NCBI RefSeq assembly: GCF_003334255.1
Contig: NZ_QOWU01000002.1
Reading direction: 5' to 3' (one strand)
Source: Escherichia coli
GTDB lineage: Bacteria; Pseudomonadota; Gammaproteobacteria; Enterobacterales; Enterobacteriaceae
DNA: 64,000 nt
Of the stretch, positions 61,351 to 63,693 are shown piece after piece. The position numbers and the translations under genes are program-made. Positions within the stretch are counted from its first letter, which is position 1; each line of letters begins with the position of its first letter. Under the pieces are notes generated by a model, which did no database searches, had not been told where the DNA came from, and saw only the letters and a list, made by a program, of their open reading frames with translations.

Positions 61351-62733
61351 TCAACCTGCCACACTCCCCCACACCAATTGCCCTTTATGGAACGTTGCGG
61401 TTCTCGGCGAGATACGCGCCACCGCCTCGGCGGAACAGGAGGCGTCCACCAGCACAAAGCTGGCGTCATCCTGCGCTTTTGGCCATACACGCTCGCCTTT
61501 TTCATTCAGCGGCAATACATCGCCAGTGGCTAAAAACAGCGAGCGGGAGAGGTTCTGTTCGTTAGGACGAATATAGAGCTGCGCGTACAGATTGGCTTTT
61601 TCCAGCATGTCGCCCAGACCATAAGGCGACCAGTGGTCGATAACGCTGTCAGTGCCAGTCATCACTTTTACGCCTTTGTCGTGCAACTGTTTGAGCGGCA
61701 TATGCAGCGTGCCAATCGGCACCGTCGAGGCGATAGAAATTTGTTGCACCACCATCCGGTTCGCCAGTTCATCTACCTGTTGCTCGTTGAGCGTTGCCAG
61801 CGCAAAGGCGTGACTGATGGTCAGCTTGCCCTTCAGCTGTGGCGTTTTCTCTACCGTTTCAACCATATAATTGATGGCTGCCACGCCTGCCGGAGTGGTT
61901 TCGTGCAGGTGAATATCGACGCCTTTGTCGTAGTCCAGCGCAATCTGGAACATGGTGTCGAGGGATTTTTCCATCGCGCCATCAACACTGGTCGGGTCCA
62001 GGCCGCCGACGTAATGCGCCCCCGCCTGCATCGCTTCACGCATTAAAGGTTCAGATTTCGACAGCAGCAAACCGTGCTGCGGGAAGGCGACGATTTCACA
62101 CTCAAAGCCCGCCTGACGTCGCGCCAGCACCGCCTGCAAATTTTGCAGATTTTTCAGGCCGGAAACCGGTTCGATATTGCAGTGGCTGCGGGCAATGGTG
62201 GTGCCTTTCGACTGCAATAAATCAATCAGTTTTTCTGCCCGCTCCTGAGTGTACGGTTGCAGTTCCGGCAGCATTTTCTGCTCGAGTTTGATCATGTCCT
62301 GGATGGTGGTGCCTGCCGGACGATTGAGCGAGCGCCACGGCCCGCCGTAAAAGGTTTTGTCGAGATGAATATGCATGTCGCGGGTGGTGGGCAGCATCAG
62401 CTTACCGCCAGCGTCATAGTGCGGCAGCGTGGCGTCCGGATGCAGCTTGTTCTCGCGCAGGGCGACAATTTTGCCGTCCTGAATCTCCACGGTCTGGCGC
62501 GCCGTGCGGGTCTGCACCGCCACGCCATTTTCGTAGTCAAAACCGGTTTCCAGCAGCACGTTATCGAGATAGTAATGCGGGTCAGTGATTTTCATGGTGT
62601 TGTTCGCTTCGCAGTTTAGGGTGCCAGCTACCGCCGCATGGGCGAGCGGCACAGAGGTACCAAACAGCGCGGCGGCGGTGACCATCTTACCGCTCTGGCT
62701 CAGAAATTCACGGCGGCTATTGCTTTCTTTCAT
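61351..62733 (-). CDS. yahJ: amidohydrolase-superfamily putative deaminase with Tat signal
   Basis: 460 aa; N-terminal SRREFLS twin-arginine motif then AAALFGTSVPLAHA; metal-dependent hydrolase-like His-rich segments. Confidence 0.8.
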   Translation of the reverse strand: MKESNSRREFLSQSGKMVTAAALFGTSVPLAHAAVAGTLNCEANNTMKITDPHYYLDNVLLETGFDYENGVAVQTRTARQTVEIQDGKIVALRENKLHPDATLPHYDAGGKLMLPTTRDMHIHLDKTFYGGPWRSLNRPAGTTIQDMIKLEQKMLPELQPYTQERAEKLIDLLQSKGTTIARSHCNIEPVSGLKNLQNLQAVLARRQAGFECEIVAFPQHGLLLSKSEPLMREAMQAGAHYVGGLDPTSVDGAMEKSLDTMFQIALDYDKGVDIHLHETTPAGVAAINYMVETVEKTPQLKGKLTISHAFALATLNEQQVDELANRMVVQQISIASTVPIGTLHMPLKQLHDKGVKVMTGTDSVIDHWSPYGLGDMLEKANLYAQLYIRPNEQNLSRSLFLATGDVLPLNEKGERVWPKAQDDASFVLVDASCSAEAVARISPRTATFHKGQLVWGSVAG

Positions 62734-62742
62734 CTTACGTCC

Positions 62743-63693
62743 TTACGTTTTAATAATATGAGTGCCCGTTTCGCCGCGCAGCGCCGCAGGCAGGCATTCC
62801 GGCGTGGTGATAATCACTTCTTTGCCGCCTTGTTCTAAAAATGTCAGGCTGGCGATGATTTTTGGCAACATGCTGCCGGGCGGGAAATGCCCTTCCTGCA
62901 TATAGCGGGTCATGGTGGCAATATCCACCCGATCGAGCGCCTGCTGCTGCGGTTTGCCAAAGTGAATACACACTTTTTCGACGCCAGTGGTGATCACAAG
63001 AATGTCGGCGTGAATTTCACGGGCCAGCAGCGCGGTAGAGAGATCTTTGTCGATAACCGCGTCCACGCTTTGGTAATCTCCCGCGTCAGTACGCACTACC
63101 GGAATTCCACCGCCGCCCGCGCCAATTACGACAAAACCTTGTTGGATCAGCGCTTTAATGGCAGGTGCTTCGACAATACGTTTCGGTTCCGGCGAGGCGA
63201 CCACGCGGCGATAGCCCCGCCCGGCATCTTCAACAAAACACCAGTCAGGGTTTGCCTTTTGTAATTCGTCACGCTGGCTGTCACTAAAGAATGCGCCGAT
63301 GGGCTTGGTGGGATGGGCAAAACCTGGATCGTTTTTATCCACTTCCACCTGAGTCACCACGGTGACGGCTTTCTTCTCGCCGTGACGCGCCAGCCGGTTA
63401 TTCAGCGCCTGTTGGATCAGATAGCCGATGCCGCCCTGCGTATCTGCCACACAGTTCGCCAGCGGCGTTAAGGGCAGCCCTTCGCGCTTGTGGGCAATCT
63501 CCGCACGGCGTAAATCCAGCCCGACCTGCGGCCCGTTGCCGTGGGTCAGCACAATGTCGTAATCGGAAGCCAGCATTTCCAGCACCGTATCGGCGACGGC
63601 TTTCACCGCCTCCGCCTGATGCTCAATCGACTGGCTGGCGTTATCTTTGATAATGCTGTTGCCACCAATGGCAACGACCACAAGCTCTTTCAT
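62743..63693 (-). CDS. yahI: carbamate kinase-like protein
   Basis: 316 aa MKELVVVAIGGNSI... amino-acid kinase fold. Confidence 0.85.
   Translation of the reverse strand: MKELVVVAIGGNSIIKDNASQSIEHQAEAVKAVADTVLEMLASDYDIVLTHGNGPQVGLDLRRAEIAHKREGLPLTPLANCVADTQGGIGYLIQQALNNRLARHGEKKAVTVVTQVEVDKNDPGFAHPTKPIGAFFSDSQRDELQKANPDWCFVEDAGRGYRRVVASPEPKRIVEAPAIKALIQQGFVVIGAGGGGIPVVRTDAGDYQSVDAVIDKDLSTALLAREIHADILVITTGVEKVCIHFGKPQQQALDRVDIATMTRYMQEGHFPPGSMLPKIIASLTFLEQGGKEVIITTPECLPAALRGETGTHIIKT

Follow-up and report, generated by a model that had tools for sequence, protein, structure and literature searches.

The yah cluster of Escherichia coli: a possible route to carbamoyl phosphate and ATP fronted by the predicted Tat-exported deaminase YahJ

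Introduction

The closest described counterpart of the yah cluster is encoded by the all genes of Escherichia coli. AllFGH (FdrA, YlbE, YlbF) was shown in 2024 to be a three-subunit oxamate carbamoyltransferase (OXTCase), which converts oxalurate and phosphate to oxamate and carbamoyl phosphate in the anaerobic breakdown of allantoin (PMC11326118), and YbcF/AllK is the catabolic carbamate kinase of E. coli (PMC9843812). In biochemical terms, the all genes amount to an OXTCase and a carbamate kinase (PMC11326118, PMC9843812). Here we analyze yahJ and yahI, an amidohydrolase gene and a carbamate kinase-like gene near the end of a 64,000-nucleotide stretch of E. coli DNA (NCBI RefSeq assembly GCF_003334255.1, contig NZ_QOWU01000002.1; hereafter the window), together with the cluster to which they belong. 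The yah genes seem to encode this three-subunit carbamoyltransferase and carbamate kinase chemistry a second time, preceded by a deaminase predicted to be periplasmic. We tentatively propose, at close to an even chance, that periplasmic deamination by YahJ feeds a cytoplasmic YahDEFG-YahI module that yields carbamoyl phosphate and then ATP.

The arginine and agmatine deiminase pathways follow a similar logic, by analogy only. Hydrolysis turns a C=N-H/NH2 group into a ureido C=O, phosphorolysis removes the carbamoyl group, carbamate kinase forms ATP, and a transporter is encoded in the operon. However, the deiminases differ in fold from YahJ, their transcarbamylases are ornithine transcarbamylase-fold trimers and not FdrA/AllG/AllH complexes, and all their steps are cytoplasmic. 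A further module of FdrA-like, DUF1116 and carbamate kinase proteins lies in region GR29 of the extraintestinal pathogenic E. coli (ExPEC) strain BEN2908, alongside a CodB-like permease and a RutB-like hydrolase (PMC12928451). The GR29 module suggests that this trio of enzymes recurs as a catabolic cassette to which different front ends can be attached.

On the function or export of YahJ and YahI, our literature search found only lists of predicted twin-arginine translocation (Tat) substrates, one ExPEC competition assay and listings in the y-ome. YahJ is among the predicted E. coli Tat substrates (PMC3027627, PMC7549933), and MKESNSRREFLSQSGKMVTAAALFGTSVPLAHA has been tabulated as its Tat signal (PMC7549933). 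In the ExPEC assay, a mouse infection, deletion of yahJ gave a competitive index of 0.70 (p = 0.02) (PMC7549933), a small fitness defect that hints at the presence of the YahJ substrate in the host. The paper describing OXTCase makes no mention of the yah paralogues (PMC11326118). The yahI/yahJ pair and the Tat signal are thus already known and annotated; the present analysis adds a pathway model, open to testing, that covers seven E. coli genes without assigned function (yahB to yahJ).

Results

In E. coli K-12 MG1655, yahD (ankyrin), yahE (DUF2877/AllH), yahF (FdrA paralogue), yahG (DUF1116/AllG), 'yahH', yahI and yahJ follow one another on one strand, with yahC (DUF1097) and yahB (LysR) divergent from them. 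The cluster shares four paralogous proteins with allF-allG-allH-allK (fdrA-ylbE-ylbF-ybcF), at 25-45% identity and likewise on one strand: YahG pairs with YlbE (45%, 5e-120), YahF with FdrA (38%, 2e-101), YahI with YbcF/AllK (38%, 5e-57) and YahE with YlbF (25%, 2e-10). The AllF, AllG and AllH subunit families are encoded beside carbamate kinase, and Pfam AllF_N, AllG and AllH are matched in orthologous clusters. The expected chemistry is the same in both systems, with a ureide and phosphate giving carbamoyl phosphate, which with ADP gives ATP, NH3 and CO2. The two nevertheless differ in composition. The AllH-like gene comes first in yah, and the ankyrin protein YahD is always present in yah clusters, unlike in the all system. 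The yah cluster further encodes YahJ, a deaminase, and in the majority of species also a permease of the UraA fold, neither of which belongs to the all genes, and its regulator is the LysR protein YahB rather than AllS/AllR. Its substrate, unlike that of the all system, is probably not provided by the allantoin enzymes.

The two genes at the end of the cluster lie in the window as follows.

61351..62733, minus strand: yahJ (b0324) coding sequence, 460 amino acids; open reading frame and RefSeq 'amidohydrolase family protein'; Tat-signal-bearing CodA/AtzC-type amidohydrolase
62743..63693, minus strand: yahI (b0323) coding sequence, 316 amino acids; RefSeq 'carbamate kinase family protein'; carbamate kinase paralogue
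62734..62742, minus strand: yahI-yahJ spacer GGACGTAAG, 9 nucleotides (nt), in frame

Positions 61000-64000 of the window are 100% identical with MG1655, and at least 80% of this stretch is found in 4975 of 5426 complete E. coli genomes. An earlier note on the window, made from the letters alone, had recognized a twin-arginine signal on an amidohydrolase-fold yahJ and a carbamate kinase paralogue in yahI. These identifications hold: YahJ matches Pfam Amidohydro_3 and Amidohydro_1, YahI matches Pfam AA_kinase and is closely related to carbamate kinases of solved structure, and the motif SRREFLS is present, with RRxF[LI] kept in 85 of 86 loci. The same note placed yahJ directly upstream of the kinase gene at a distance of 9 bp. 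The distance is right and the order is reversed; both genes are on the minus strand, so yahI lies upstream (5') of yahJ and precedes it. Its expectation that the cluster runs past the window end is borne out by yahH (REP repeats, see below), yahG, yahF, yahE, yahD and then the divergent yahC and yahB, and the search for partner genes that it advised finds yahEFG there, paralogous to the allFGH oxamate carbamoyltransferase.

In context, the spacer reads TAA-GGACGTAAG-ATG, and a Shine-Dalgarno sequence, AAGGA, overlaps the yahI stop codon. This overlap implies that yahI and yahJ would be co-transcribed, and the two are probably translationally coupled. A yahI-yahJ spacing of about 9-13 nt recurs across the full clusters of other species. 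Promoter and terminator scans gave nothing exceeding shuffled expectation, and the promoter scan found no sigma-70-like promoter 5' of yahI on the coding strand. Separately, in a few assemblies of E. coli, YahI and YahJ are encoded as one fused protein of 677-780 amino acids, which would have the Tat signal in its interior. The fusions of 779-780 amino acids are consistent with a lost yahI stop codon, since the 9-nt spacer keeps the reading frame.

YahI aligns end to end with solved carbamate kinases (1e19, 6e-83, residues 3-314; 1b7b, 1e-72; also 3kzf and 2e9y), and its Pfam AA_kinase match stands at 5e-23. It scores 648.9 bits against a cutoff of 266 on the NCBIfam model PRK12352 'carbamate kinase' and falls slightly below the cutoff of the arcC equivalog TIGR00746 (346.2 against 358.25). 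YahI is a carbamate kinase paralogue with predicted activity of that kind. Our search found no published assay of YahI, and the study of YbcF does not mention yahI (PMC9843812).

The catalytic features of YahJ map to the following positions.

61354..62598, minus strand: YahJ mature catalytic domain, about residues 46-460, a (beta/alpha)8 barrel, from alignment and AlphaFold2
62365-62373, minus strand: codons of YahJ H121-x-H123, from the CodA alignment

YahJ is most similar to enzymes that hydrolyze exocyclic C-N bonds. Its nearest solved structures are those of AtzC (6nbo, 1.9e-43; 2qt3 and 4cqb, about 1e-30), and structures of cytosine or 5-methylcytosine deaminase match at 1e-15 to 1e-20. 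The AlphaFold2 model, a (beta/alpha)8 barrel with a beta-sandwich subdomain, has a predicted local distance difference test score (pLDDT) of 87.4 overall and of 95-98 across most of the catalytic domain. In Foldseek, the best match to this model is again AtzC 6nbo (1e-31, template modelling score (TM) 0.87; AtzC range 0.84-0.87), CodA and 5-methylcytosine deaminase follow at TM 0.71-0.77 (CodA 0.71-0.75), and imidazolonepropionase is the third structural neighbor. YahJ shares the fold of CodA and AtzC (TM 0.71-0.87) together with their metal-binding residues, the Glu and His of catalysis and the Gln that binds substrate; sequence identity is only 21-29%. CodA Asp314 is replaced by Ser363, and the 45-residue N-terminal Tat signal and linker are absent from both enzymes. 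NCBIfam likewise gives YahJ its own subfamily, PRK06846 (712.7 bits against a cutoff of 447, residues 49-459 only), separate from the cytosine deaminase models. CodA, 26% identical to YahJ across 323 residues, is itself an in-window paralogue, encoded at 46497-47795 within the codB-codA operon (46497-49029, minus strand), whose products are cytosine permease and cytosine deaminase.

The alignment with CodA pairs H121/H123 of YahJ with H61/H63, Q219 with Q156, H275 with H214, E278 with E217, H308 with H246 and D362 with D313. H121, H123, Q219, H275, E278, H308 and D362 are invariant in 12 YahJ orthologues; among relatives at 34-42% identity, the Glu position of HxxE varies (E, D or T). YahJ has the strand-1 HxH, strand-5 His, strand-6 catalytic His and strand-8 Asp of the single-metal subgroup, and VAFPQHG, the sequence of its strand beta-4, offers no lysine that could be carboxylated to build a two-metal site. 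Matches to the D-hydantoinase (5e-6) and dihydroorotase (5e-4) models are weak and confined to the N-terminal 50-60 residues or so. With AtzC and CodA as best matches, the CodA residue set kept and no carboxylatable lysine, YahJ is likely a deaminase or aminohydrolase and not a ring-opening ureidase. Sequence and fold model therefore point to a hydrolytic deaminase/aminohydrolase predicted to act on the exocyclic C-N bond of a planar N-heterocycle or amidine. YahJ remains below every curated cytosine deaminase cutoff in NCBIfam (PRK07572, 101 of 438 bits; PRK09230, 81 of 483; PRK07583, 67 of 403), which argues for a substrate other than cytosine and makes the name cytosine deaminase unsuitable.

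The N-terminus of YahJ carries the predicted export signal.

62635..62733, minus strand: predicted Tat signal peptide MKESNSRREFLSQSGKMVTAAALFGTSVPLAHA of YahJ, codons 1-33, with motif, hydrophobic region (h-region) and AxA site
62698-62718, minus strand: SRREFLS codons, YahJ residues 6-12

SRREFLS deviates from the S/T-R-R-x-F-L-K consensus only in its final position, where S replaces K. It is followed by a moderately hydrophobic h-region, MVTAAALFGTSVPL, and then by a predicted signal peptidase I site between AHA and A, so that MKESNSRREFLSQSGKMVTAAALFGTSVPLAHA is followed by A. AYA or AHA is conserved at the cleavage site of most YahJ orthologues. In 12 aligned orthologues (70-89% identity), R7, R8, F10 and L11 are invariant and the 15-20 residues past the cleavage site vary freely. 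RRxF[LI] is found in 85 of the 86 loci with a readable N-terminus, mostly one per species (83 with an ATG start and two with SRRAFLS behind a non-ATG start). The sole exception to the RR pair is the solitary yahJ of Xenorhabdus szentirmaii, with NRHEFLS for NRREFLS (locus L062, ~10001-10060), whose product may be losing export. Because RRxF[LI] is kept while the segment after the signal varies, the motif is not a chance match. Residues 1-45 have a pLDDT below 50 in the otherwise confident model and would lie outside the fold for that reason, and the PRK06846 match begins only at residue 49. Among distant relatives (34-62% identity), those with an N-terminal extension carry RR (P0122, P0123, P0126, P0146) or RK (P0125), and relatives of about 400-429 amino acids have no signal at all. 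The predicted Tat signal thus appears to have been under selection in one branch of the YahJ family. The YahJ signal peptide was reportedly tested in reporter fusions by Tullman-Ercek et al. in 2007.

YahJ resembles the E. coli Tat substrates CueO, SufI, AmiA and AmiC in its S-R-R-x-F-L-type N-terminus, moderately hydrophobic h-region and AxA site. These proteins bind metal or cofactor before export, and the YahJ passenger is likewise predicted to be metal-dependent, plausibly folding before export. YahJ has no evident dedicated Tat chaperone. To our knowledge, no other amidohydrolase-superfamily deaminase is among the E. coli Tat substrates tabulated in PMC7549933. A lipoprotein signal can be rejected, since T-L-N ahead of Cys41 does not make a lipobox. 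Because Erwinia and Cedecea keep only yahB/yahD-yahJ, the ankyrin protein YahD was also weighed as a partner of YahJ, either its Tat chaperone or an inhibitor acting on it in the cytoplasm. This was not adopted as the main reading: YahD accompanies the AllH/F/G-like genes even without YahJ, and the short loci are explained equally well by internal deletion.

A scan of one genome per species gave 80 loci with YahJ orthologues, with neighbors scored by tblastn. The 72 loci with enough upstream sequence fall into five arrangements.

31 of 72 loci: yahB/yahD-yahE-yahF-yahG-permease-yahI-yahJ (Citrobacter, Serratia, Buttiauxella, Providencia, Proteus, Budvicia)
14 of 72 loci: full permease cluster without yahE (Enterobacter, Lelliottia, Leclercia, Aeromonas)
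11 of 72 loci: no permease, with yahC, the Escherichia type (Klebsiella, Raoultella, Kluyvera, Pseudocitrobacter)
5 of 72 loci: yahB/yahD-yahJ only (Erwinia, Cedecea)
11 of 72 loci: yahJ alone (Xenorhabdus, Shewanella, Labrys)

Directly upstream of yahJ, yahF, yahG and yahI are present in 56 of these loci (78%). More distant clusters vary the deaminase. In Janthinobacterium, Ank-AllH-AllF-AllG-permease-carbamate kinase-LysR has no deaminase. In Brevibacillus (locus L095, 516-11554), the order is PucR/Ank-AllH-AllF-AllG-NCS1 permease-carbamate kinase-deaminase-permease; the NCS1 permease is closest to allantoin permease models, yet below their cutoff. The Brevibacillus deaminase is a 152-amino-acid protein of the cytidine deaminase (CDA) fold without a signal peptide, closest to the guanine deaminase GuaD of B. 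subtilis (6e-31). This GuaD-like enzyme is encoded right after the carbamate kinase gene, where yahJ is found elsewhere, and so represents a non-homologous replacement. Such a replacement is the strongest argument that the position is a slot for a deaminase of purine- or pyrimidine-like compounds. It also suggests that the core can work by itself, with the deaminase as an accessory. Cytobacillus has PucR/AllH-AllF-AllG-permease-(ankyrin-TPR)-NCS2 permease. Around the genes of cytoplasmic YahJ relatives, binding proteins of ABC transporters, a TetR regulator and an isochorismatase are encoded, which do not point consistently to any substrate.

The permease of most full clusters is replaced in K-12 by repetitive extragenic palindromic (REP) sequences.

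63725..64000, strand not assigned: tandem REP/bacterial interspersed mosaic element (BIME) array, 93-nt period, repeat families D1-D3; continues to locus L001, 11695-12115
Locus L005 7300-8847, locus L006 6942-8492 and locus L016 7461-9011: genes for the 515-amino-acid permease, between yahG and yahI

The REP/BIME array fills the 421-nt gap between yahG and yahI and is annotated as 'yahH'; a recent compilation describes 'yahH (filled with REP23 sites)' (PMC11551758). The 98-residue YahH translation is itself repetitive REP sequence, and there is very little chance that the annotated YahH exists as a protein. A permease of 515 amino acids takes this slot in 45 of the 56 full clusters. It is 65-85% identical from Proteobacteria to Firmicutes, found no match in Pfam, NCBIfam or PDB sequence searches, and is labeled 'xanthine permease' or AGZA family in some sources; it appears to be an uncurated transporter family. 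The best matches of its AlphaFold2 model (pLDDT 81) are SVCT1, SLC26Dg, BicA, UraA and AZG2, with a 7+7 elevator fold. The placement in the UraA/SLC26 superfamily, reached by fold search only, cannot separate nucleobase from organic-anion carriers.

The Escherichia-type cluster appears to have lost the permease. The gene for YahC (DUF1097, a small membrane protein; locus L001, 16837-17334) occurs only in clusters without it (11 against 45, never both). As a candidate replacement YahC was set aside, since the yahC type is a single clade and so counts as one evolutionary event. The permease gene is nevertheless present in 142 of 5426 complete E. coli genomes, with 106 of 152 matched places on plasmids. 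The layout was read on one of these, the IncF plasmid p24A16CRGN010_A (locus L097, 3107-11540), which carries a second cluster, LysR/Ank-AllH-FdrA-YlbE-permease-carbamate kinase, without yahJ and among insertion sequence remnants. The plasmid-borne permease copies make the core module look mobile.

Discussion

The yah cluster combines paralogues of a carbamoyltransferase and of a carbamate kinase with a deaminase that bears a conserved Tat signal. From the observed gene identities, motifs, paralogy, synteny and conservation, we infer export, the direction of flux, a hand-off from YahJ to YahEFG and the substrate class as follows. YahJ would fold and take up its metal in the cytoplasm and then be exported by the Tat system. 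In the periplasm, it would remove the exocyclic amino or alkylamino group of a nucleobase-like N-heterocycle or amidine, leaving the oxo form and ammonia or an amine. The oxo product would be imported, in most species via the dedicated UraA-fold permease. In the cytoplasm, YahE/F/G, probably with the ankyrin protein YahD, would most likely phosphorolyze an N-carbamoyl compound of the acyl-urea type to carbamoyl phosphate, which YahI would use with ADP to form ATP and carbamate, the latter yielding NH3 and CO2.

The earlier note had suggested a catabolic route that releases carbamate, in ureide or N-heterocycle degradation. The route stands as the best reading, given that yahEFG are paralogous to allFGH. 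The role that this would give YahJ does not, as its residue set is that of the CodA/AtzC deaminases and not of a carbamate-releasing enzyme; carbamate would come from the carbamoyl phosphate made by YahEFG phosphorolysis and hence not from YahJ.

Several points weigh against this pathway. No ring-opening hydrolase is conserved in the yah cluster, which leaves a missing step between the deaminated ring and an open acyl-urea. The linkage of yahJ to the module is not obligatory, as the 11 solitary and 5 yahB/yahD-yahJ loci among the 72 illustrate, and Janthinobacterium and E. coli IncF plasmids have the core module but no yahJ. The UraA fold is common to SulP anion transporters, so the permease is no proof of a nucleobase substrate. 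K-12 lacks the permease and has its cluster split by the REP array, for which reason the K-12 copy may be cryptic. Finally, native export of YahJ is listed as a prediction only (PMC3027627, PMC7549933), and all the yah genes considered here were still listed as uncharacterized, or y-ome, in 2024 (PMC11551758).

There are rival explanations. YahJ may be an autonomous periplasmic deaminase, serving nitrogen scavenging or the detoxification of amino-heterocycles or antimetabolites, that shares a regulator or a neighborhood with YahDEFG-YahI and passes no metabolite to it. Such independence is favored by the solitary yahJ genes of Xenorhabdus, Shewanella, Labrys, Serratia quinivorans and Wohlfahrtiimonas, whose products are 62-83% identical and retain the Tat signal, as it is by the yahJ-less core modules and the lack of a cluster enzyme to connect the deamination product to an acyl-urea. 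However, yahJ immediately follows yahI in 78% of species loci with a spacer of about 9-13 nt, even the yahB/yahD-yahJ loci retain the same LysR regulator, and the unrelated deaminase directly after the Brevibacillus carbamate kinase gene is hard to explain without a functional tie. We consider an autonomous YahJ rather unlikely. The K-12 cluster could instead be a cryptic, decaying remnant, in which both the Tat signal and the pairing of the genes would be legacies without a current pathway function. The absence from K-12 and its relatives of the permease that 45 of 56 full clusters encode, the 421-nt REP array between yahG and yahI, the negative scan for a sigma-70-like promoter upstream of yahI on the coding strand and the y-ome status of all genes (PMC11551758) would fit such decay. 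This is improbable in view of the intact open reading frames, catalytic residues and signal, the presence of the region in 4975 of 5426 complete genomes, the small ExPEC fitness defect of the yahJ deletion (PMC7549933) and the same permease-less layout with yahC retained by Klebsiella, Kluyvera and Raoultella.

Closest to the 'ureide degradation' of the earlier note is a YahJ that opens rings itself, as a cyclic amidohydrolase of hydantoinase, allantoinase or dihydropyrimidinase type that makes the ureide for carbamoyl harvest. The pathway logic does need ring opening somewhere, and membership of the amidohydrolase superfamily, the weak N-terminal similarity to D-hydantoinase/dihydroorotase models and the structural proximity to imidazolonepropionase, a ring-opening enzyme, are compatible with it. 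The best sequence and fold matches, AtzC and CodA, are nonetheless exocyclic C-N hydrolases, the CodA-type HxxE Glu and the Gln156 equivalent are conserved, VAFPQHG on beta-4 lacks the lysine for a two-metal site, and the Brevibacillus counterpart is a GuaD-like deaminase. Ring opening by YahJ is thus highly improbable.

Deamination by YahJ ahead of YahDEFG-YahI may be carried one step further. In its fullest form, which we regard as possible and on balance doubtful, the model is an ATP-yielding substrate-level phosphorylation pathway from an amino-substituted purine-, pyrimidine- or triazine-like compound, with a Tat-exported deaminase, a permease without a Pfam or NCBIfam model, a four-component ankyrin/AllH-/AllF-/AllG-like complex and YahI. 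If this is true, OXTCase-type enzymes would make up a broader family of 'ureide phosphorylases' whose front-end deaminases can be swapped, those of Proteobacteria having the amidohydrolase fold and those of Firmicutes the CDA fold. Confirmation would add to enteric bacteria an anaerobic route yielding nitrogen and ATP, broaden the substrate range of the OXTCase family, and provide a rare catabolic pathway that opens with a Tat-exported amidohydrolase.

Additional features

Identical or near-identical E. coli plasmid matches to yahJ do not look like natural plasmid copies; judging from record sizes and sources, they appear to be F-prime plasmids or chromosome-sized PLSDB records. On the other side of yahJ, the 376-nt yahJ-yahK spacer contains a RefSeq pseudogene at 61062-61136, a 75-nt fragment of a 'hypothetical protein' without its N-terminus.

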